From assembly GCA_963785235.1 (NCBI GenBank), contig CAWAUM010000009.1:340-64339 (forward strand): DNA of 64,000 bases, written 5' to 3'. Source of the stretch: an uncultured delta proteobacterium (lineage in GTDB: Bacteria; Desulfobacterota; Desulfomonilia; UBA1062). The notes beneath the pieces were generated by a model. The model was not told where the DNA came from. It made no database searches and saw only the letters and a list, made by a program, of their open reading frames with translations. Both the position numbers and the translations under genes were made by a program. Of this stretch, positions 2,998 to 62,215 are shown one piece after another. The number at the start of each line of letters is the position of its first letter. The first letter of the stretch is position 1.

Positions 2998-3168
2998 ACC
3001 CCCTGATTTTAAGACCTTGCAGGACTATGATCTGTTACATCAAGTATAAGAACTTCAGGATTCCGGCTTTCTCGCGATCCGAAAAGAAAAAAATCAAGGA
3101 AGGGTACAATGTCCGGAACCAGCGACACTTCACCCCCCCTTCAAGTTCTTAAAAAAACTATCCTTCTG

Positions 3169-4080
3169 TTAATTCAGAATGCGCTTCCTGAGCCCGATGA
3201 GACCCAGAAGTCCTGGGGCGAAAAGGAACAGACTTGCCGGGATAGGCACGGAAGATGCTGGGATCGGGTCAGTTATCTGAATGCTTGTCAGATTGCTCAC
3301 CGACCGTGAACCATGAAGGTCTCCCGTAGGTGTTAAAAGTCGCACATATCCGTTGCCTGGACTGGTGGGGTTGCCGCTATATGCGTAGAAGTTTACCATA
3401 TCAGGGCTCGTCGCGCTCAGCAGTTCACCTACTGAGAGAATCGTGGGATAGTTGTCCATCGTATTGAAGATGATCATGTTGTTCAGATTCAAACTGTTGG
3501 CGTTGACTCCGTATGCATTGAGCAGGTCTATTATGGGTCTGCTTTGACCTACAGTGAAACCTGCCGCCGACAGCTGAGCATCTGTTAATGTTGTTGACGT
3601 GATTCCGTCGCCGGAAACAGTGAGGCTGGATGAATAAGCTCTGGTGCTGGAAGTAGCATCTATGTAGTGCACAACCGAAATACTGGTTACACCCGTAACA
3701 TCGCGGCTGTCATAGCTGTCCAAATTGAAGCTGCCTAAACCATTTGATACAAGATTTATGGCCTTGTTGCCGACGTAGGCGTCGATCTCTCCCCCAGAGA
3801 AGGCTACCGTGCCGCTGTTCCCTTTCACCAGTACATAGTCTCTCTCGAATGAATTCTTGATGCCGTCACCATAATGGTATGAGGGGTCGAGAATATCATC
3901 GTGCTGCCAGAGTGGGTTAGCATAGCATGTTGGATTCAATATGCTATAGAGTGAACCAACGGCTGTATAGTCACCGGCAGTGGTCCAACATCCGCTGACA
4001 GTATACGCTTGGGCTTGAACGCTGAACATGAACAGCGCCGCTATGGCAGTAATCACAACAAAACACTTCCTTGTCTTCAT
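3169..4080 (-). CDS. PEP-CTERM sorting-domain exported protein
   Basis: Signal peptide ending AQA. The C-terminus VPIPASLFLFAPGLLGLIGLRKRILN has a P-x-P motif, a hydrophobic helix and a basic cluster. Confidence 0.7.
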   Translation of the reverse strand: MKTRKCFVVITAIAALFMFSVQAQAYTVSGCWTTAGDYTAVGSLYSILNPTCYANPLWQHDDILDPSYHYGDGIKNSFERDYVLVKGNSGTVAFSGGEIDAYVGNKAINLVSNGLGSFNLDSYDSRDVTGVTSISVVHYIDATSSTRAYSSSLTVSGDGITSTTLTDAQLSAAGFTVGQSRPIIDLLNAYGVNANSLNLNNMIIFNTMDNYPTILSVGELLSATSPDMVNFYAYSGNPTSPGNGYVRLLTPTGDLHGSRSVSNLTSIQITDPIPASSVPIPASLFLFAPGLLGLIGLRKRILN

Positions 4081-13850: not shown

Positions 13851-13871
13851 TGAGCATAAGTTATCGAGAGT

Positions 13872-13935
13872 AAACCCAGATTTTGCGTTTAGGACGTTTT
13901 AAAAACCTGATCCGTTCAAGTCCTGTCATCTTACA
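13872..13935 (+). repeat. hairpin-MITE family, 5' arm remnant
   Basis: AAACCCAGATTTTGCGTTTAGGACGTTTTAAAAACCTGATCCGTTCAAGTCCTGTCATCTT is the TIR plus left arm plus left half of the hairpin. There is no right half. It starts 22 nt after the DUF3343 stop. Confidence 0.75.
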
Positions 13936-14168
13936 ATATTTATCGAAAGCTTATTTTCTTGGTCCTGAAGAGTGGAATCTCTCCTTTGTGTAGAGTGAAT
14001 TGTTCTTATAGTAATCGTTGCTTCATCCGCGTCATCGGCGAGTATAGATTATATTCAGAACTATTCAATATCTTTAAAGGATTGATCATGGAATGTTATA
14101 TTCAGTTTCTTTGGGCTTATAGAACCATTGATTTTATTGCAAAATCATTAGTCTGAGAAAAGTGAAGA

Positions 14169-22557: not shown

Positions 22558-22780
22558 AATCCGGGTTTTGCGCTTGAATGCACCCATAAATACTCAATGC
22601 ACAACAGGCGCTCTTTAAGTATAAAACTCATAGTGCCATGGAATTGTTTTTTAATTAGGTCCGTTCAAAACATCAATCTTGCAGCCTTGAAGGACCGATA
22701 TAATTAGCGCTCCACAAAGGCTGCAAGATTGATGTTTTGAAGGAAAAAGGTTTTACGGTTCTTAAATGCAAAATCCGGAT
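22558..22780 (-). repeat. hairpin-MITE family, full copy
   Basis: Ends AATCCGGGTTTTGCGC ... TGCAAAATCCGGAT. Central hairpin 22658-22745 with the 7-bp box CATCAAT/ATTGATG. Starts 10 nt after the aroF stop. Confidence 0.85.
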
Positions 22781-22816
22781 CGATAAGATGGACTTGTTCC
22801 TATTCATGAACGAAAA

Positions 22817-26404: not shown

Positions 26405-26552
26405 AACCCGGGTTTTGCAGTTAAGAGGAGTAAAAAAACTTGATCCGTTAAAAACCTCAATCTTGCAGCCTGGAAGGACCGGGAAATTAACATGCCGCAA
26501 AGGCTGCAAAATTGAGGTTTTTAACGGACCTATTTAAAAACAGTTTCCATGG
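26405..26552 (+). repeat. hairpin-MITE family, 3'-truncated copy; loop in the minority orientation
   Basis: AACCCGGGTTTTGCAGTTAAGAGGAGTAAAAAAAC... Hairpin 26442-26530 with box CCTCAAT/ATTGAGG. Ends at CCATGG, directly abutting the activase stop codon. Confidence 0.8.
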
Positions 26553-27488
26553 TTAAACATCTCCGAGCCCGGGTTCCTCGCCTGGTCTCCATACCCTGAT
26601 CCCCTCGGCCAGGAACAACCCTTCGACGGCATCCAGCTCGGAATCCGTAGGTACGCGTATATCAGGACCCTCCGGGAGCCCCAGCCACCGGCGTTTACCA
26701 TCCCCCATGGGGTGGAAGGGCACTATGGTCAGGAAGGATATCCCGAGCCCGTTGAGAAAGCCTGCCCAGCCCTTTACATTTTCCTGTCCGTCTGTCATAC
26801 CCGGCACCAGAGGAAGGCGTGGCCTGACAGGAGGGCCCTCCTGCCTGCCCCAGGCCTCCGCAAGGGACTTCAGGTTCTGTTTGATCTCCGTGTTGCTCAC
26901 CCCGCATAACAGCCTGTGCCGGGACTCGTCATAGACCTTGATGTCGAAGAGCACGAGCTGAAGCTCCTGAAGGAGGGGCTGCAGCCTCTCCGGATTGAAG
27001 TATCCACAGGTCTCCAGGGCGACTTCAATGCCTTCGGCGCGCAGCGACCTCGCCAGCCTGGCAGCAAATTCCGGATAGAGCGTCGGTTCCCCTCCGGTAA
27101 AGGTCACGCCGCCTCCGGAGGTCCTGAAAAGGGGAAACTCGGGTCTGAGTTCCTCCACGATTTCTTCGGAAGTCAGGGGGATGCCGAAGCGCGTCATGGC
27201 GCCCGAAGGGCAGCTGTCAATACAGGTAAAGCAGTATCTGCATTGTTCGGCATCCCTTTTCCCCACGTGGGCCAATGCGTTCCCCGGGCAGTTTTTTACG
27301 CACCTTGTGCAGTTGATGCAAAGATGCGATTTGAAGGCTATGTCGACTACAGGCTTCCAGGATTCGACGTTCTGGCACCAGACACAGCGCAGGGGGCAGC
27401 CTTTGAAAAAGACCAGGCTCCGCATCCCCGGACCGTCATGGAGGCAGAAATGCTGCAGGGAGAAGATGAGCGGCTCAGGTGATGCCAT
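26553..27488 (-). CDS. glycyl-radical enzyme activating protein (radical SAM, with extra ferredoxin-like clusters)
   Basis: GCPLRCVWCQN (CxxxCxxC) plus CINCTRCVKNCP and CRYCFTCIDSCP. The likely start MASPEPLIF at 27488 overlaps the GRE stop. Confidence 0.85.
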   Translation of the reverse strand: MASPEPLIFSLQHFCLHDGPGMRSLVFFKGCPLRCVWCQNVESWKPVVDIAFKSHLCINCTRCVKNCPGNALAHVGKRDAEQCRYCFTCIDSCPSGAMTRFGIPLTSEEIVEELRPEFPLFRTSGGGVTFTGGEPTLYPEFAARLARSLRAEGIEVALETCGYFNPERLQPLLQELQLVLFDIKVYDESRHRLLCGVSNTEIKQNLKSLAEAWGRQEGPPVRPRLPLVPGMTDGQENVKGWAGFLNGLGISFLTIVPFHPMGDGKRRWLGLPEGPDIRVPTDSELDAVEGLFLAEGIRVWRPGEEPGLGDV

Positions 27489-29945
27489 GGGCCGTTCTCT
27501 CGATGATCTCGTCCTGCACATCGGCCTGGAGGTCGTTGAAATAGGCGCAGTACCCGGCCACGCGCACCACGATCCCCGGGTAGGATGCAGGGTCGTTTTT
27601 CGCAGCCTTTAGTGTCTCGGCATCGAGGATATTGACCTGGACCTGCATTCCCCCCTGATCGAAATAATTTTTAAAAAGGTCATCAGTGCCTTACACCCCG
27701 TCTCCCCCTGGACCATCTTCCTGTCGAACTTCAGGTTCAGGGCATGGCAGTTCATCCATTTTCTGCTGTCCAGGGACGCGGCCGAACGCAGCACCGCCGT
27801 GGGGCCCAGGCGCTCGGCCCCGTCCGCCGGGGCGAGGCCGTTGGAGAGGCGCTTTCCGGCGGGCCTGCCGTTGGGCAGTGCGCCGGTAACCTTGCCGAAG
27901 CCGATGTGGCAGGTCATGGAATAGAATCCCGGCACGTATTGCCCGCCCCGCGTGTTCTTGTGGGCCCAGAGCGCATCGGCGAAGGCGTCGGCTGCGAGCT
28001 GGGTCATCCGGTCCGCCTCGGGAATGCCGTTGCCGTAGCGGGGGAGCTTGGTGGCCAGCTCGAGGCGCAGGTCTTCATGGCCACGAAGTTGTCCTTGAGG
28101 ATGCCCACGAATTCCTCCAGGCCGAAGCGCTTCTCATCAAAGACCATCTTCTTCAGGGCGTAGAGGGAGTCGCCCGCATCGGCGAGGCCTGCAGCCTGGA
28201 CGGAGGTGTAATCGTAGAGGCCGCCGCCCCAGGTAACGTCCTTGCCCTTTTCCAGGCAGCCCTGGGTGATGATGGAGTTCACCGGGGTCGGCCGGGCCGT
28301 GCGATAGACCTCCTCCAGCCAGCCGATCACCTTCACCATGTCGTCGACCCCGTGGCGGACCTGGGTGCGGAAGGCTTCAAGCACATCTTCAAAGGTCTTC
28401 ATGGAAGATGCCGGCGGTGTTGCTGCACCGAAGCGGCTGCGGCCCTCTATCCTGGCCTTGCCGTGAAAGCGGCAGCCCTCGTTCAGGGCCAGCTCCAGAC
28501 AGAGGGGCAGGTTGAAGAGCGCGGCGTCCGAGGAGTTGTAGGTGCGCCCCTGGCTCGCCATCTCCACGCAGCCGATGACGGCGTAGTCCCGGGCGTGTTC
28601 CTCAGTCATGCCTGCCTCTTTGAGTGCCCTGACCACTGCCGTGTCCCCGAAGAGAGAGGGTCGGCTGGTGCCCATCTGGAGAAGCTCCACGCTCTTGTGC
28701 AAGAACCAGTCGGGCGTGGCGGGATGGATGCGGACGTGGACCGCCGGTTCGCGGGTCAGGACCTGGGCATAGGCGTCCAGGATAAGACCGGAAAGCTCGT
28801 TGGTCACGTCGTTTCCCTTCGCGTCCGTGCCCCCAAGGTGAAGGCCTGGGCGACCCCGATGCCACTGAAGAACTGGTCGACCCTCTGGGAGTAGAGCGGT
28901 ATGGTCTCGCAGGTCTTCAGACAGAAACCGGCGGTCATCTCCGTGGCCTTCTCGGGCGTGAGCCTGCCCTGTTCGATATCCGCGCGATACAGCGGCAGGA
29001 GGACCTGGTCCATCCGGCCGAAGGAGAGGCCCTGCTCGAAGTCTTCCAGGTTCAATGCCACGTGGACAAGCCAGGTGGCCTGCAAACCCTCCAGGTAGGT
29101 CCGGGCCGGTTCAAAGGGGACCCTGCGGCACGCCTTCGCCGATTCCAGGAGTTCGATCTTTCTCCATTCAGGAACACCCGGCCGGGAGGCCATATTCTGT
29201 GCCTCGTGAGCCAGATTTTCCGCCATCTTCCTAATGCCGTCGATCGTGATGACCACCGAGCGGAAGAAGGCCCTCTGATCGGCATCAAGAGGGGAGCCGT
29301 CCGCAAGCCTGCCCTCCTCCAGCCTTTGTCGGCCTCTTCATAAGGGCGGCACAAGCCTTCATGGACGACCATCCGGTAGTTTCCCACCTGATGTCCCACG
29401 CCAGCCTCCTCGGTGATGAAGTGGCGCTTGGCCCGGAAGAAATCCAGAAAATAGGAAATGCGCCCGGGCTTGAGGAGCGCTTTTGCTCCGACGCTTTTGA
29501 ATGCGTTTCTGAGTCCTATGAAAAGGAGTTCCGCGGTCTCCCTGCCGCTTAACTTCAGGGGTATGGTCCGTTTCCCCAGCCGGAAGAAGTCCTCAAGGAT
29601 GTTGATGGACCCTCCCTCGATGTAATAATTGGCGGCAATGCGCTTGGAGGTCATGTTGCCGATGATGAGTTCACCATCGTAGATGCGGGGCGTGCGATGG
29701 GAGAATATATAGTTCAGCGCCAGGGCGCGCTGCACCAGGGAGTGCTCCGTTCTGGCGCTTTGGTGGCCCTGTCTGGACCTATGGAATTCCCCCAGGAGCC
29801 TCGGCCTCTCAAGACAGATCGAGTACGGGGTGGAAAACAGCTCCGCCCTGATGGAGGCAATACGCGGTGTGGGGCTTACGAACCCCCCGATCGGGGCTGC
29901 AGCTTTTGAGGCCTTGGTCTTCGTGACATGAGGAAATGTAGCCAT
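27476..29945 (-). CDS. glycyl radical enzyme, PFL2/glycerol-dehydratase-like family (~823 aa); four frame breaks as sequenced
   Basis: Five colinear pieces: 29945-29330, 29256-28804, 28807-28004, 28007-~27690, ~27690-27476. They carry the thiyl-Cys region AVIGCVEMAS and the C-terminal glycyl-radical motif VVRVAGYCAYF (translated by hand from 27476-27690). Confidence 0.8.
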
Positions 29946-35072: not shown

Positions 35073-35294
35073 AAATCCGGATCTTGCGTTTGGATGTATC
35101 CATCAATACTTTAGGCACTTAAGGTAACCTTGAGCATAGAATTCATTACAGCCATGGTAGTGCTTTTTTTAATAGGTCCGTTCAAAACCTTTATCTTGCA
35201 GCCTCGAAGGACTGATAAAATCTGCGTTCCTCAAAGGCTGCAAGATAAAGGCTTTGAACGGAAAAAGGTTTTTGCGCATCTCAAACGCAGAATC
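35073..35294 (-). repeat. hairpin-MITE family, full copy
   Basis: AAATCCGGATCTTGCGTTT ... CAAACGCAGAATC. Hairpin 35175-35262 with box CCTTTAT/ATAAAGG. Starts 17 nt after the rhomboid stop. Confidence 0.85.
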
Positions 35295-35381
35295 TACGGT
35301 TTATGCAATTATCAGATTGATTAAACGGTCCGGCTTCTATAATATTTTGCGGTTACTTTGATAGAGAGAAGGAGTTGCTCC

Positions 35382-37173
35382 ATGAGTACAGGCATCAAAC
35401 ACGAACGGCTTAACAAGTGGGTTTCCGAAGTGGCTGACATGTGCATGCCCGAATCGGTCATCTTGTGCGACGGAAGCAAAGACGAATACGACCGCCTCAT
35501 GGCGGGCATGGTTGCAAGCGGCAGTGCAATCCCGCTCAAGAAGCGGCCCAACAGCTTCCTTTTCCGCTCGGACCCGAGCGATGTCGCCAGGGTGGAAGAC
35601 CGCACGTACATCAGCACGCCTGATAAAAATGAAGCAGGCCCAACCAATAACTGGGTCGACCCGGCAGAACTGAAACAGACCATGAAGGCCCTTTACAAGG
35701 GATGCATGAAGGGCAGGACCATGTATGTGATCCCGTTTTCCATGGGGCCCATCGGGTCGCCCATCAGCAAGATCGGCATGGAGATCACGGACAGCCCCTA
35801 TGTGGTGTGCAACATGCACATCATGACAAGGGTGGGGACAAAGGTTATGGAGGCCCTGGGCACGGACGGTGAATTCATCCCCTGCGTCCATTCCGTGGGC
35901 GCACCGCTGGAGCCGGGGCAGAAAGACGTCCCGTGGCCCTGTGCACCCATCGAGAAGAAGTACATCAGCCATTTCCCGGATGAAAACCTCATCTGGTCAT
36001 ATGGTTCCGGATACGGCGGCAACGCGCTGCTTGGCAAGAAGTGCCTGGCCCTGCGCATAGCATCCGCCATGGCTAAGAGGGAAGGGTGGATGGCCGAGCA
36101 TATGCTCATCTTGCGCCTGACAAACCCCGAGGGAACCCAGTTCCATATCGCAGCGGCCTTCCCGTCGGCCTGCGGCAAGACGAATCTGGCCATGCTCCAG
36201 CCCACCATTAAAGGCTGGAAGTGTGAGACCATCGGCGACGACATCTCCTGGATGAAAATCGGCCCTGACGGAAGGCTCTATGCCATCAACCCCGAGGCAG
36301 GGTTCTTCGGCGTGGCGCCAGGGACCTCCTATAATTCAAACCCCATGGCCATGGATACCCTGCACGAAAACTGCATCTACTCCAACTGCGCACTCACCGA
36401 CGATGGCGACATCTGGTGGGAGGGAATGGACGGCGAGCCCCCTGCTCCACGCCATCGACTGGAAGGGCCGCGACTGGACGCCTGAGAGCAAGGAGGTGGC
36501 AGCCCATGCCAATGCCCGCTTCACCGCACCTGCCGGACAATGTCCTGTCATCTGCGCCGACTGGGAGAAGCCCGAGGGCGTGCCCATCGACATCTTTGTC
36601 TTCGGCGGCAGGAGGGCAGGGGTAGTGCCGCTTGTGAATGAGGCATTCAATTGGGACCACGGTGTATTCCTGGGTGCGACCGCTTCGTCGGAGACAACGG
36701 CGGCCAATATCGGAGACATCGGGGCGCTCAGGCGCGATCCGTTTGCCATGAAGCCGTTCTGCGGCTACAACATGGGCGACTACTTCCAGCACTGGCTGAA
36801 CATGGGCGACAAGCTGGGCAAGAATGCCCCGCGTATCTTCTATGTGAACTGGTTCCGCAAAGGCGTGGCAGGTAAGTTCCTCTGGCCGGGCTTCGGCGAG
36901 AACTCAAGGGTATTGAAGTGGATGTGCGACCGCATCGACGGCAAGGCTTCTGCTCGTGAAACCTCCATCGGCCTGATTCCTGAGGAAGAAGACCTTGACC
37001 TGAAGGGCCTGAACATCCCGCAGGAAAACCTGCACGAGCTCCTGAAGGTCGACGTGGATGTGTGGAAGGCCGAGATGCCGAGCCTGGAGGAGCACTTTGC
37101 CCAGTTCAAGGACAGGCTGCCCCAGCGCATTATGCAGCAGCTCGATGCCCTGAAAGAACGGCTGAACAAGTAG
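35382..37173 (+). CDS. pckG: phosphoenolpyruvate carboxykinase (GTP); one frame break as sequenced
   Basis: RBS AAGGAG then [14 protein letters not shown]. Carries [35 protein letters not shown] and FGGRR. The frame changes at ~36445 (observed GCTCCACGCC, where GCTCACGCC would keep ...[14 protein letters not shown] in frame). Confidence 0.9.
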
Positions 37174-37240: not shown

Positions 37241-37259
37241 ATCCAGTTATCTGACTTTT

Positions 37260-37478
37260 ATCCCAGATTTTATGCTTGAAGAGGTGTAAAAACCTTTTTC
37301 CGTTCAAAACCGTTATCTTGCAGCCTTTGAGGCATGCAGATTTTATGGGTCCTTCTCGGCTGCAAGATAACGGTTTTGAACGGACCTGTTTAACAAAAGC
37401 AAAACCATAGTCTATGGCTAAAGCCACCTGAAGTGCATTGAGTATGCATAGGTACATTCAATTTCAGAATCCGGATTT
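37260..37478 (+). repeat. hairpin-MITE family, full copy
   Basis: Hairpin 37299-37386 with box CCGTTAT/ATAACGG. The 3' end is ...GGTACATTCAATTTCAGAATCCGGATTT and the 5' TIR is degenerate. Ends ~36 nt before the next gene. Confidence 0.85.
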
Positions 37479-37513
37479 ACGAGCCTTATTGACTCCATGT
37501 GCCATTGGATTGT

Positions 37514-38663
37514 ATGACAATAAGACGAGAAAGGAGATACGTGGATTTGCACCCTGCCATTACACCGTTTGATGAAGCAGTACGCTTCAGGAGGCAGCGC
37601 CTTGAAGAGGCGGCATCCAGCGGCAGGAAGGTCATCGGCTATTTCTGCACCTATACCCCTGTGGAGATCATCCATGCCGGCGGCTTTATCCCGGTGCGCA
37701 TCTGGGGAGGGACCGGCCGGATTGAGAAGGCCTATTCGCTGGTGCCGAACTTTATCTGTCCGTACATGAGGCTTTCCCTGGAAGGGGCCTTGAACAACGA
37801 GTTCTCGTTTCTGTCCGGGATCGTGCAGGGGTACACCTGCGATGTGGCCTGTGGTGCCGTGAATATCTGGAAGGATAACTTCAGCCTGGAGCTCTGCCAC
37901 AGCCTGCCTTTACCCTATAACGACAACCAGGATGCACGGGAATTCCTGCGGGCCGGCATTGAGGAGCTTGCCTGCAAGCTGACACGGATCGGGGGCAGCC
38001 TCACGGATGAATCGCTGAAAGACTCGCTTGAGCTTTATGAAGAGATAAGGACGATCCTTGCATGGTTATTTGAAATGACGTGCCCAGGGCAACCTGCCGC
38101 TTACGTGCCGGTGATGTCCTGAGCGTTGTGCAGGCGTACTTTGTCACCCCGCCTGAAGAGTACCTGGAAATGCTCAAGGCCTTGATGGTGTACCTGAAGG
38201 GCGCCCCGGTATCAATAACCCCAGGGAATACCGGTCCTCGTATCGGGCAGCGTCGTAGAGGATGCACAGGCCTTTACGATCATGGAGGGCCTTGGCTTCA
38301 AGGTCGTTGCCGATGATCTCTGTACGGGCCGGCGTGGCTTCATACCGATAGCCGGTCTCGGGGAGACGCCCATGGAGCGTCTTATAGACAGGATCATGAA
38401 CAGGTTTCCCTGCCCCTCACGGTCGCACCCCAGGGAGAGGGTGCCGCTCCTCCTGGAGCTCATCAGGGCATCCCATGCAAAAGGGGTCATCTTCGTATTT
38501 CAGAAGTTCTGCACGCCGCACCTGGCGGACCACCCCAAGGTTGCACAAGGGTTGAAAGATGCAGGTCATCCCCAGCATAGCAATCGAACTCGATGAGTCC
38601 GGGCTCATGGAGGCGCAGGTGGCAACAAGGCTGGAGACCTTCTGGGGCATGTTGAGGCAATAA
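37514..38663 (+). CDS. 2-hydroxyacyl-CoA dehydratase / benzoyl-CoA reductase BcrC-BadD-HgdB family subunit; at least 3 frame breaks as sequenced
   Basis: GRKVIGYFCTYTPVEIIHAGGFIPVRIWG, then AGDVLSVVQAYFVTPPEEYLEML, then GIPVLVSGSVVEDAQAFTIMEGLGFKVVADDLCTG and KGVIFVFQKFCTPH..., in successive frames. Confidence 0.7.
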
Positions 38664-38664
38664 G

Positions 38665-39915
38665 ATGGAGACGAACCGGAAGTCCACGAAACGCTTGAAT
38701 ACGGCCAGAGACCTCACAAAAGTGGTGGCGGAATACTACCTGGAGTGCCACCAGGCCAAGGCCTCGGGCAAGCCCGTCGGCTGGATGCCCCCCATGAACG
38801 GGGCCATAGAGGTATTCTATGCCATGGACCTGCAGCCGGTCTTCCCGGAAAACTGGTCGCCCGTGTGCGCGGCCTTCGGGCTGACGCCCGAGCAACTTCG
38901 ATATCTCCGAGCGCATGGGCTATTCGGGCGATCTGTGCGGTTATCTGCGCAATATCGTGGGCTATGTGCATGGTGACATGAACGGTCCGGCTGTCCCGCT
39001 GGGCGGCCTGCCCGAGCCGGACATGGTCATGTCCTTCGGCGGCGGGTGCATTCCGGCCATGAAGATCTTCCAGATCATGGAAGGGCGCTTTCCCAGCGGC
39101 AAAGGTCTTCAGGGCGGATGTGCCCCAGGTGGCAGTGGAGGACATCCGCGACCACCATGTGGCCTATGCGGTGAGCGAGATACACCGGCTCATAGATTTC
39201 CTTGAAAGGACAACCCGACAGAAGGCTCGATATGGCAAGGCTCGCCGACGTGGTAGAGCTCTCGGACAGGGCATGCCTGCTCTGGGACGAGATCATGTCG
39301 TTCCGCCGGTTCATACCCACCCCCATCTCGGCAGCCGAGATCGGCATCATGTTCGTCATGGTCACCAGGCAGGGTACGCAGATCGCCGTGGACTTCCTCA
39401 CCCGGGTGCGTGACGAGGTCAAACAAAGGGCAGCCTCGGGCATCGGAGTCATCGAGAACGAGAAGATCAGGCTCTTCTGGGACAACATCCCTCTGTGGTA
39501 CAACATGGGTCTGTTCAACTACTTCGAAAAGATGGGCGGCGTGATGGTTGCCGAGACCTATTCTGCAGCCTGGTCGCTCCGGCTTGACACGAAAGATCCC
39601 ATCGAGGCCCTTGCACGGAAGAGCCTCATGTCGTATTCGCTTGTCTCGTGCCTGTCCATTGATCGCCGCAAGGAGATGGTGCTCAAGGCCTGCCGTGACT
39701 ACAAAATCGACGGGGCCGTGTTCCACCAGAACAAGTCGTGTGCGCCCATCACCCTTGGCCAGGCGGACATCCGCAAGGCCTTATCCGATGAACTCGGCAT
39801 CCCTTCCATCACCATTGATGCCGACCATATGGACAGCCGCAACTTCTCTTTTGCCCAGTTTCAGACCAGGGCTGACGCGTTCATGGAGATGCTGCTCCAG
39901 AAAAAGCAGGGTTGA
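38665..39915 (+). CDS. 2-hydroxyacyl-CoA dehydratase family subunit (second component); 3 frame breaks as sequenced
   Basis: KPVGWMPPMNGAIEVFYAMDLQPVFPENW, MGYSGDLCGYLRNIVGY, VAVEDIRDHHVAYAVSEIHRLIDFLE, and LFWDNIPLWYNMGLFNYFEKMGGVMV...IDGAVFHQNKSCAP. Frames run 1>2>0>1. Confidence 0.7.
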
Positions 39916-39934
39916 AAAAGCGGGTTCTTTTTAT

Positions 39935-40125
39935 AAATCCGGATTGTGCGTTTAAGGAGTGTAAAAACTTGGTCCGTTCAAAACCTTTATCTTGCAGCTT
40001 TTGAGGAACGTTAGTTTTATCAGCCCTTCAAGGCTGCAAGATAAAGGTTTTGAACGGATCTATGAAAAAAAGCACTACCATGGTCGTAATGAGTTCTATT
40101 CTTAAGTTCACCTGAATCGCACGCA
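39935..40125 (+). repeat. hairpin-MITE family, 3'-truncated copy
   Basis: AAATCCGGATTGTGCGTTTAAGGAGTGTAAAAAC... Hairpin 39971-40060 with box CCTTTAT/ATAAAGG. The right arm ends at ...CACCTGAATCGCA, next to the stop of the convergent gene. Confidence 0.85.
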
Positions 40126-40129
40126 ATGC

Positions 40130-40504
40130 CTATGGATTGTTAATCTTGAATTTGACCGAGGCCTTTGTATCACCTTCAATAATCAGTATGGCTCCATACG
40201 ATCCCTTGGGAAGGTCATTGAACCACCACCATTTGGTCCAATTCTCAGGAACATAATCCTTGTATGTCTTCACGACAGTTCCTGTAGAAAGGTCACTTAT
40301 CCGAACCGTTACATTATGCCCGCCACAGCCTGTAACAACCACTGCGGGTATTTCGCCTGCAGCGTATTGATCTACCCGCATAGTATAGTTACCGGCCTTA
40401 ACATCAACCTGACGGGACATGTGTATGTCCTGGGGAACAGCAGCACAGCCGAACATGAATACTACTGATATGAATACGAGAACGGATGATAATAGTTTTA
40501 TCAT
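40130..40504 (-). CDS. small lipoprotein, unknown function
   Basis: RBS AAAGGAGA then MIKLLSSVLVFISVVFMFGCAAV (lipobox). 124 aa. Confidence 0.55.
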   Translation of the reverse strand: MIKLLSSVLVFISVVFMFGCAAVPQDIHMSRQVDVKAGNYTMRVDQYAAGEIPAVVVTGCGGHNVTVRISDLSTGTVVKTYKDYVPENWTKWWWFNDLPKGSYGAILIIEGDTKASVKFKINNP

Positions 40505-46170: not shown

Positions 46171-46398
46171 ACCTGGTAGAAACTTGGCGTTTAAGAAGCG
46201 TAAAAACCTTTTCCGTTCAAAACCTTTATCTTGCAGCCCATGAGGACAGCAGATTTTATCAGTCCTTCAGGGCTGCAAGATAAAGGTTTTGAACGGACCT
46301 ATTAAAAAAAAGCAATACCATGGTCGTAATGAGTTCTCTACTTAAGGCCACCTGAAGCGCATAGAGCATTATAGGTACATTCAATTGCAAAATCCGGC
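46171..46398 (+). repeat. hairpin-MITE family, full copy
   Basis: Hairpin 46212-46299 with box CCTTTAT/ATAAAGG. The right arm is ...CCATGGTCGTAATGAGTTCTCTACTTAAGGCCACCTGAAGCGCA...GGTACATTCAATTGCAAAATCCGG. Starts 6 nt after the esterase stop. Confidence 0.85.
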
Positions 46399-46458
46399 AT
46401 ACATGGTATCATCCATATCCTTGTCTCTAATGCTTAAGCCATGAGGGAATGACAGGTT

Positions 46459-47647: not shown

Positions 47648-47698
47648 ACCGTAAAAATGTGTTGAGTTCCTCCGAGGAACTCAGCACATTTTTACGGT
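47648..47698. repeat. 23-25-bp hairpin related to the base of the hairpin-MITE stem (terminator-like)
   Basis: ACCGTAAAAATGTGTTGAGTTCC tccga GGAACTCAGCACATTTTTACGGT (one G-U). It shares the ACCGT..AAAA / TTTT..ACGGT base with 51078-51128 and lies 49 nt after the lysE-like stop. Confidence 0.7.
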
Positions 47699-49420: not shown

Positions 49421-49438
49421 TCCATGTGGCTTTGGATT

Positions 49439-49665
49439 AACCCGGGTTTTGCGTTTGAAGACGCGTAAAAACCTGATCCGTTCAAATCAGTCATCTTGCA
49501 GCCTTTGCGGAAGGCTCATTATCTCGGTTCTTTAAGGCTGCAAGATGACTGATTTGAACGGACCTATTTTTAAAAACAATTCCATGGTCACTAATAGTGT
49601 TATGCTTACAACCACCAGAGATAAATGGGGCAATTATGGGTACATCTAAACGCAAAATCCGGCAT
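49439..49665 (+). repeat. hairpin-MITE family, full copy
   Basis: AACCCGGGTTTTGCGTTTGAAG ... CTAAACGCAAAATCCGGCAT. Hairpin 49475-49564 with box CAGTCAT/ATGACTG and a compensated CAAAT/ATTTG. Ends 11 nt before the MATE start codon. Confidence 0.85.
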
Positions 49666-51020: not shown

Positions 51021-51077
51021 TATTATGAGACCACTGTAGAACCTTCCAAGCATTTTGTTGCGATATCAAAAAACCTT

Positions 51078-51128
51078 ACCGTTCAAAACATGCATCTCGG
51101 TGAAGCCGAGATGCATGTTTTGAACGGT
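51078..51128. repeat. minimal member of the hairpin family; also a plausible terminator of the MATE gene
   Basis: ACCGTTCAAAA-CATGCAT-CTCGG tgaag CCGAG-ATGCATG-TTTTGAACGGT is a perfect 23-bp stem, followed by CCAATTTTTGGTTTT. Confidence 0.8.
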
Positions 51129-51299
51129 CCAATTTTTGGTTTTCATCTCAGAGATTTAAGGTTATGCAAGGGTCTTATATATCACCTTCGCTATCGCCTC
51201 TTTGATTGCATCATGACATCCTGACCAAAATACGCTATATCACAGGAGCAGCCACGAACCCAAAGGTTGCGTTATTTTCATAAAGAGCAGGAGGAAACA

Positions 51300-58861: not shown

Positions 58862-62062
<3,201 letters not shown>

Positions 62063-62077
62063 ACTGAATAAGGACTT

Positions 62078-62215
62078 GTTTTTAAAATAGGTCCGTTCAA
62101 AACCTTAAAGATCGCAGCCTTTGTGGAATGCTGATTGTAGCGGTCCTTCAAGGCTGCGATCTTTAAGGTTTTGAACGGATCAGGTTTTTACACTTTTTGA
62201 ACGCGAAATCCGGGG
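62078..62215 (-). repeat. hairpin-MITE family, half copy; loop in the minority orientation
   Basis: Hairpin 62090-62181 with box CCTTAAA/TTTAAGG. CTTGCAGCC is replaced by GATCGCAGCC, compensated by GGCTGCGATC. It then runs GGTTTTTACACTTTTTGAACGCGAAATCCGGGG. The CCATGG-containing arm is absent. Starts 16 nt after the carB stop. Confidence 0.8.

Follow-up and report, generated by a model that had tools for sequence, protein, structure and literature searches.

Recurrent inversion of a hairpin loop within a MITE-like family of intergenic repeats in a bacterial genome

The loop of a hairpin that forms the core of a dispersed repeat was found in two opposite orientations relative to its flanks. 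Its inversion is recurrent, having occurred in many independent events, and flipped copies form no clade. On balance we favour, as the probable explanation, a passive inversion mediated by the hairpin, through template switching in replication or recombination of one arm with the other, accompanied by ectopic gene conversion among copies, rather than a programmed switch.

An inverted-repeat scan of the window (the whole 64-kb stretch of DNA analyzed here) identified eight hairpins, at 22.7, 26.5, 35.2, 37.3, 40.0, 46.2, 49.5 and 62.1 kb, with arms of 26–27 nt (consensus CCGTTCAAAAC-N4-6-ATCTTGCAGCC) and a loop of 31–32 nt. Folded as single-stranded DNA, these hairpins reached energies between -29 and -41 kcal/mol (z between -8 and -14, whichever strand was folded) and are far from chance. 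The initial annotation had described two different hairpin flanks and these were present in all eight copies, with GTAAAAAC(C)-TKRT on one side and ACCTATTTAAAAA...CCATGG on the other. Read from the GTAAAAAC side, six of the eight loops have the form TTTG(N)GGA...GGTCCTTCAA, with a start written TTTGNGGA and an end written GGTCCTTCAA, and we refer to this as the common orientation. It is found in the hairpins at 22661-22744 (loop 22687-22718), 35178-35261, 37300-37383, 39974-40057, 46213-46296 and 49478-49561. In the other two hairpins the loop reads T(T/G)GAAGGACCG...CCRCAAA from the same side. The first of these flipped hairpins lies on the plus strand at 26445-26527 (arms 26445-26470 and 26502-26527, 31-nt loop 26471-26501; single-stranded DNA fold -29 kcal/mol, z -8.5) and the second on the minus strand at 62093-62178 (arms 62093-62119 and 62152-62178, 32-nt loop 62120-62151; -39 to -41 kcal/mol). 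Once the flanks are used to orient all eight, these two loops are the reverse complements of the remaining six. The 62.1-kb loop matched the six common loops at 22–27 of 32 positions as reverse complement and at 14–19 directly, the corresponding values for the 26.5-kb loop were 18–23 and 15–17 of 32, and the two flipped loops matched one another directly at 24/32. The division into six copies of one orientation and two of the other is that made in the initial annotation, and its estimate that the plus-strand loop at 62.1 kb is approximately 80% identical to the reverse complement of the plus-strand loop at 22.7 kb compares with a measured 27/32 (84%).

Such assignments depend on a loop that can be oriented, and this loop clearly can be. 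Comparison of a loop with its own reverse complement gave only 14–22 identities in 32, the central 16 nt are asymmetric, and the difference between forward and reverse orientation scores was at least 8 for 136/138 family loops (see below) compared with 12% of shuffled loops. It might nonetheless be argued that the flips are an artefact, either of a symmetric loop that has no true orientation or of an assembler that crossed the palindrome wrongly, and the loop ends (TT...AA, GGA...TCC) are indeed partly palindromic. The asymmetric centre and decisive orientation scores argue against the first form of this explanation, and excessive symmetry, which the initial annotation had named as a way in which its proposal could fail, is not a property of these loops. 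The second form is considered below together with the assembly data.

The pattern GGCTGCAAGAT-N6-TTTNAACGG, which needed to match in one arm only, was used to collect further copies. A scan of species-representative genomes with this arm pattern identified 35 loci in a single MAG (CAYMDG01), which is ~92% identical to the window and syntenic with it; a small number of further MAGs, of sediment or freshwater origin, also matched. A metagenome scan added at least 120 further loci, mostly from lake or sediment samples, whilst human-gut matches were single-arm chance hits. An apparent organization of the stem into constant outer and inner parts with a variable middle was set aside, being largely imposed by the search pattern GGCTGCAAGAT-N6-TTTNAACGG. 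Among the matches listed, 138 hairpins were scorable, with 99 in the common orientation, 35 flipped and 4 ambiguous, and the flipped share by source was 2/8 in the window, 11/39 at genome-collection loci (mostly of the related MAG) and 22/91 in metagenomes. Scoring of loop against flank orientation over many copies had been suggested in the initial annotation, and it revealed both states: the 126 distinct copies among the matches listed (window, MAG and sediment metagenomes) comprised 93 common and 33 flipped (26%), with the reservation that comparison copies come mostly from short-read metagenome assemblies, in which copies joined into chimeras at identical arms could make loop and flank look more independent than they are. 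After canonicalizing, the loop consensus was TTTGTGGAATGCTAATTTTCTCGGTCCTTCAA for both classes, and loop length was 30–34 nt in both states. Flipped copies were no older and no more diverged than common ones, and their arms were no less perfect. The inverted segment (~28–32 nt) is bounded exactly by the arms.

Alignment of the window copies with their flanks indicated that a larger repeat surrounds the hairpin, which is only its core. This repeat occurs as a short form of ~167–170 nt and a long form of ~220–245 nt and is intergenic or overlaps only gene ends. The long form carries an extra module of ~75 nt (CCATGGTC..TATGCTTAAGGCCACCTGAAG...) on one side and accounts for 6/8 window copies, at 22559-22784 and 35075-35301 on the minus strand and at 37257-37476, 39933-40150, 46181-46399 and 49436-49664 on the plus strand, each enclosing the common-orientation hairpin at that position. 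The 26.5- and 62.1-kb hairpins lie within short forms that lack the ~75-nt module, at 26407-26573 on the plus strand (~167 nt; left end CCCGGGTTTTGCAGTTAAG, right end ...TTAAACATCTCCGAGCCCGGG, with the extent read from sequence and the right end a weaker match) and at 62047-62215 on the minus strand. That both flipped window copies are the two without the module is what would be expected if two old subfamilies, one per loop orientation, had been amplified separately with no recent inversion, an explanation also put forward in the initial annotation as a way of refuting its proposal. In the larger sample, flipped loops were found in 18/84 of the copies that carry the module and 10/27 of those that do not (Fisher p = 0.13), and the correspondence between flipped loop and short form in the window is therefore a coincidence and no rule. 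All 84 copies in which the immediate flanks could be scored against the outer 75-nt module had them in the same relative orientation. Flipped loops did not cluster but were scattered over the sub-lineages, and among the matches listed 27/33 flipped copies had an unflipped copy as their nearest neighbour by loop sequence. Amongst pairs 90–95% identical outside the loop, the state differed at a frequency of 0.43 (13/30) compared with 0.39 expected under independence.

A number of near-identical copies differ by the flip alone. In the pairs L052:1086/L125:2073, L102:87/L143:70 and L061:17/L112:2715 (L numbers designate sequences of the wider sample), which have the same flank orientation, the arms are 100% identical and the loops are 97% identical as reverse complements (94–97% over such copies), and some of these pairs, for example L102:87 and L143:70, share rare stem and flank variants. 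Orthologous loci also differ in state. L013:3538 and L092:1560 represent one orthologous locus at which a rare loop end, CGAACCG, is common to both but lies in opposite orientation, a difference that is an in-situ flip. Similarly, the 46.2-kb copy has the common orientation in the window and is flipped at its orthologs in the MAG (L029:3918) and in an independent metagenome contig (L090). The initial annotation had claimed that the segment bracketed by inverted repeats inverted at least once in the history of the family, and the data extend this claim to many inversions, which refute the ideas of two old subfamilies and of a symmetric loop; we give the former hardly any credence.

As regards assembly, public short-read contigs very often end at or inside the hairpin (L166, L169 and many JGI contigs, e.g. 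L058, L061, L090, L101 and L117). The hairpin breaks short-read contigs, and the family thus acts as an assembly breakpoint. The response-regulator gene beside the 22.7-kb copy was found on four short contigs, two of which (L166 and L169) break inside that hairpin, and the sole contig of the four to reach the loop has it oriented as in the window. An exact-protein look-up for strain-level alleles returned no record for any of three window proteins. Frequent breakage within the hairpin lends some plausibility to wrongly crossed palindromes, but at 84 nt the hairpin is short enough to fit within a typical read. Moreover, the objection from chimeras is limited because the loop and stem variants of every window copy are its own, leaving no donor for a chimera, and because the 46.2-kb flip is replicated in independent assemblies. 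With both of its forms considered, an artefactual origin of the flips is scarcely tenable.

Six loci of the window were compared with orthologs, five of them with the syntenic MAG and the sixth (49.5 kb) with metagenome contig L161. The hairpin was conserved at the 22.7- and 37.3-kb loci. At 40.0, 46.2 and 49.5 kb the orthologs carry a different stem variant in which both arms have changed together. The stem variant also differs at the 35.2-kb ortholog (L008:816-899 versus 35178-35261), where the hairpin together with 5–6 nt per side (CTTGAT-hairpin-ACCTA, exactly these 96 nt) is inverted with respect to the outer element. A direct repeat, TAAAAAC, flanks this CTTGAT...ACCTA unit in the family consensus, and the arrangement hints that the hairpin unit may once have been a separate nested insertion. 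Co-variation of the arms was observed throughout the family. Among the matches listed, the arms were perfect in 87/126 distinct copies, and 322 departures from the arm consensus were compensated on both arms compared with 44 that were one-sided, counts to which subfamily inheritance contributes and in which the variable positions are biased by the search pattern, although pairing itself is unbiased, one arm having been matched.

Several of the differences between orthologs are mosaic replacements, indicating that part of the signal is conversion and not in-place inversion. In L104/L144 and L048/L132 the genomic flanks are 99% identical whilst the element differs, in a mosaic, over 100–250 nt, and between the 40.0-kb copy of the window and L008:5543 identical and divergent patches alternate. 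Such mosaic differences between near-identical loci suggest that ectopic conversion among copies is also frequent. The flips could then arise mainly from ectopic gene conversion, with palindromic arms pairing in either register and the donor loop being copied either way. In keeping with this, orthologous loci with 92–99% identical genomic flanks have different stem variants and mosaic tracts (L104/L144, L048/L132 and the 35.2-, 40.0-, 46.2- and 49.5-kb copies versus L008, L029 and L161), and the 40.0-kb copy is a patchwork when set against L008:5543. The pure flip between L102:87 and L143:70, with rare variants common to both, would however require donor and recipient to be identical, in effect one and the same copy, and the same objection applies to the in-situ flip between L013 and L092 with its rare loop end. 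We therefore consider conversion an unlikely main source of the flips, albeit one to be taken seriously. It complements passive inversion, and neither excludes the other.

The element has the properties of a mobile repeat. Terminal inverted repeats, CCGGATTTTGCGTTTAAG... and ...CTTAAACGCAAAATCCGG, were evident in the long-form alignment, and the right ends of short forms matched more weakly. A profile search of the window returned the eight copies, a degraded copy at 13871-13967 on the plus strand in which the terminal repeat and the arm of the left side survive and the right arm is missing, and a relative with a short loop at 51.06–51.14 kb. This related hairpin (51062-51144, strand unassigned) has a 5-nt loop and the same outer stem, CCGTTCAAAAC...GTTTTGAACGG; it is perfect, with A-rich flanks like those of the family and a different inner stem. 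A further perfect hairpin at 47648-47698 (ACCGTAAAAATGTG...) is more distant from the family. Beside some elements a second hairpin family was seen (AAACCTGACCTGTTAAAGCCATGCATCTCGCC...GGCGAGACGCATGGCTTTAACAGG, loop ~28 nt), in L044 approximately 100–190 nt upstream of 4099 and in L140 downstream of the hairpin at 3386. Copies of the element are dispersed: the 64-kb window has 8 or more and a single related MAG at least 35 loci. An extra short-form copy is present in the related MAG at L008:3040-3277 (hairpin 3164-3249), directly after the 37.3-kb element, and is without counterpart in the window at 37409-37475. In L003 and L110 the element lies at different points, and in opposite orientations, within one intergenic region. 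Four insertions are flanked by 5-bp AT-rich duplications of the putative target site, TTTAA/TTTAA (L110), TTTAT/TTTAT (L104), ATGAA/ATGAA (L013) and TTTAA/TTTAC (the extra copy in L008), and such duplications are absent at several window copies, e.g. those at 49.5 and 26.5 kb. On account of the presence/absence differences and moved positions, with 5-bp duplications at several insertions, the element behaves as a MITE, and we describe it as a non-autonomous, MITE-like intergenic repeat of a previously undescribed family. No additional pairs of terminal inverted repeats that might mark an autonomous insertion sequence with the same ends were detected in the window or in ~0.8 Mb of family loci, and no plasmid match to the element was found. 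Rfam returned nothing at the gathering threshold over the whole window, and a relaxed Rfam search with one element gave only generic miRNA-hairpin matches far under threshold.

Other known kinds of hairpin were considered and rejected. Integron attC arrays have their sites in one orientation, with GTTRRRY/RYYYAAC cores and intI nearby, whereas the copies described here occur in both orientations, 2–12 kb apart amid housekeeping genes, with no integrase in ~50 ORFs. REP/RAYT-associated palindromes, as characterized in PMC3733652, are 20–40 bp with a GTAG or CGTC tetranucleotide head, whilst the present hairpin is 83–86 nt, begins CCGTT and lies inside an element bounded by terminal inverted repeats. 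An IS200-type hairpin was ruled out on architecture.

Mobility offers another route to two loop states. Terminal palindromes of parvoviruses occur in flip and flop states that arise via a hairpin intermediate, and the loop might similarly be randomized at each transposition through a fold-back or hairpin intermediate, so that new copies are born in either state. The element is mobile, as judged from presence/absence and from different insertion points between relatives, and the relatedness of copies shows no correlation with their loop state, both of which fit this idea. Orthologous loci that have not transposed nevertheless differ in state, the ratio is 3:1 and not 1:1, and ordinary terminal inverted repeats with ~5-bp duplications point to a DDE-type cut/copy mechanism that works at the ends of the element, not at the hairpin within it. 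Randomization during transposition is accordingly improbable.

Every window copy (8/8) lies just downstream of the 3' end of a gene, and the neighbouring genes are ordinary housekeeping genes (DAHP synthase, Crp, radical-SAM activase, rhomboid, PEPCK, HGD-D, MatE and CarB). The right end of the short form at 26407-26573 overlaps the stop codon of the radical-SAM ORF (26553), and the right end of that at 62047-62215 overlaps the last codons and stop (62060-62062) of carB; the last few codons of both genes are seemingly provided by the repeat. Three genes of the window are each split over two ORFs, namely PEPCK (35358-36485 and 36280-37173), a PFL-like glycyl-radical enzyme (28004-28807 and 29052-29945) and the D-component of 2-hydroxyglutaryl-CoA dehydratase (37499-38122 and 39202-39915), which suggests frameshifts, either from assembly indels (e.g. 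in long reads) or in pseudogenes. A Pfam search of ~50 window ORFs, covering Phage_integrase, Resolvase and transposase domains, revealed no recombinase, invertase or transposase. In the 34.9–40.3 kb region, which holds three copies, no sigma-70-like promoter was predicted and no simple terminator was called. A candidate -10 box in the loop was dropped as no promoter was called inside the three elements of this region. Using crude ORF calls, neither loop nor flank orientation correlated with the direction of the neighbouring gene.

The initial annotation had left it undecided whether inversion is passive or active. An active switch would be driven by an enzyme, either a site-specific recombinase or one acting on the cruciform, and would alter, for example, transcription termination or RNA stability of neighbouring genes. 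In either state the loop shows the same degree of conservation as the remainder of the element, the two orientations keep a stable 3:1 bias and all eight window copies are located just past a gene 3' end, observations that a switch of this kind could accommodate. Against it are the ~50 window ORFs devoid of a recombinase, the lack of any promoter-like or terminator-like call in the three elements of the 34.9–40.3 kb region, the lack of correlation with neighbouring gene direction and the independent flipping of dozens of dispersed copies. A 32-nt spacer is also far smaller than the segments that known invertases or tyrosine recombinases invert. Of the two alternatives, the passive one is favoured by the 28–32-nt segment, its arm-exact bounds and the absence of a recombinase from the window ORFs and of promoter calls from the 34.9–40.3 kb region, and an active switch is very improbable.

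Passive hairpin-mediated inversion is our preferred reading because the bounds coincide exactly with the arms, inversion is recurrent, the segment is only ~30 nt, no recombinase was seen amongst the window ORFs and dozens of dispersed copies have flipped. The loop, effectively its inner ~28 nt, would be inverted repeatedly and in place by the element's own arms. The likeliest route would be RecA-independent template switching during replication across the extruded hairpin, in which a nascent strand copying one arm may re-pair with the complementary arm, copy the loop backwards and then switch back. The same template switching could re-copy one arm from the other, which would leave the arms perfectly paired, and ectopic gene conversion among the many copies would presumably replace hairpins as well. 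A segment of ~30 nt falls far below the size at which known inversion recombinases can achieve synapsis, or at which the two arms could recombine as duplexes. We infer both the preference for template switching over duplex recombination and the absence of function.

One feature of the data is not predicted by a neutral, symmetric flip-flop. The two states occur at 74:26 and not 50:50 (binomial p = 8e-8, with copies treated as independent), although loop state appears equilibrated with respect to relatedness. Possible causes of this 3:1 bias are asymmetric flip rates, a preference of orientation at transposition and weak selection. Since the bias persists although state seems randomized with respect to relatedness, a functional reading stays alive, namely that the hairpin is a minimal, recombinase-free flip-flop with states that differ in function and with measurable switching in populations. 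The states might differ, for instance, in strand-specific RNA hairpin stability, in termination at gene 3' ends or in transposition competence. We regard this as speculative and quite unlikely; if true, it would represent a dispersed, structure-driven phase-variation device.

If passive inversion is correct, the MITE family is a natural record, replicated many times over, of how hairpins mediate the inversion of their loops in a bacterium. Considerably more than a hundred copies are available, having perfect arms of 26 nt and a 32-nt loop that can be oriented, and from these the rates of template switching and arm homogenization relative to point substitution could be estimated. The family would also show how perfect palindromes persist in genomes. 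Flipping loops of this type will mislead repeat alignments and phylogenies, and software for finding invertons would flag such sites as phase-variable switches, though probably none is one.

The recurrent loop flip is a further example of a known mutational process and no new kind of system. As in fimS, hin/gin and the invertons of Bacteroides, a segment bounded by inverted repeats is found in two orientations. Those systems have a recombinase and a segment of hundreds of bp with promoter or coding sequence, usually at a single locus, whereas the segment here is 31–33 nt, with no recombinase among ~50 window ORFs and no promoter-like site in the 34.9–40.3 kb region. Amongst small repeats, inversion has been reported for the Correia repeat-enclosed elements (CREE) of Neisseria (Elbeyioglu et al. 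2016, as cited in PMC10969869 and PMC5874624). These are likewise small, non-autonomous repeats bounded by inverted repeats and located by genes, with an interior found inverted. In CREE, however, the whole core between the terminal repeats inverts, together with promoter and IHF elements, whereas here the terminal repeats and flanks are fixed and the internal hairpin loop alone flips; there is no sequence similarity between the two. ERIC elements occur in size classes, with short forms and long forms that have an internal insertion of ~70 nt, and are not known to contain a long and perfect hairpin whose loop flips. ERIC/IRU sequences of enterobacteria are intergenic, imperfectly palindromic, MITE-like repeats near gene ends (PMC10969869). 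They thus resemble the present family as intergenic palindromic MITE-like repeats with short and long forms, but differ in sequence and in host.

The closest parallels to the flip itself are with small inversions at hairpins. Template-switch mutations in RNA genes invert hairpin loops and make simultaneous compensatory changes in stems (Mönttinen & Löytynoja 2022, PMC8794818). Stems are kept perfect there as here, where 322 compensated changes were counted compared with 44 one-sided ones, but the inverted loops are mostly 4 nt and up to 7–8 nt (PMC8794818) compared with 31–33 nt, and the sites are rRNA and miRNA genes and not a non-coding repeat. In non-coding DNA of chloroplasts, hairpin-associated inversions of 4–50 bp are pervasive and a recurrent case has been described (PMC12371153); that review also covers the 'minute' or small inversions of Kelchner & Wendel 1996 and Catalano et al. 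2009. In the chloroplast inversions, as in the family described here, the loop flips recurrently and homoplasiously with no dedicated enzyme, and the bounds are the arms of the stem. They involve single-copy organelle loci compared across species, whereas here a bacterial mobile element is affected that exists in many copies; dozens of these, paralogs as well as orthologs, show the process, and the perfect arms are much longer (26 nt).
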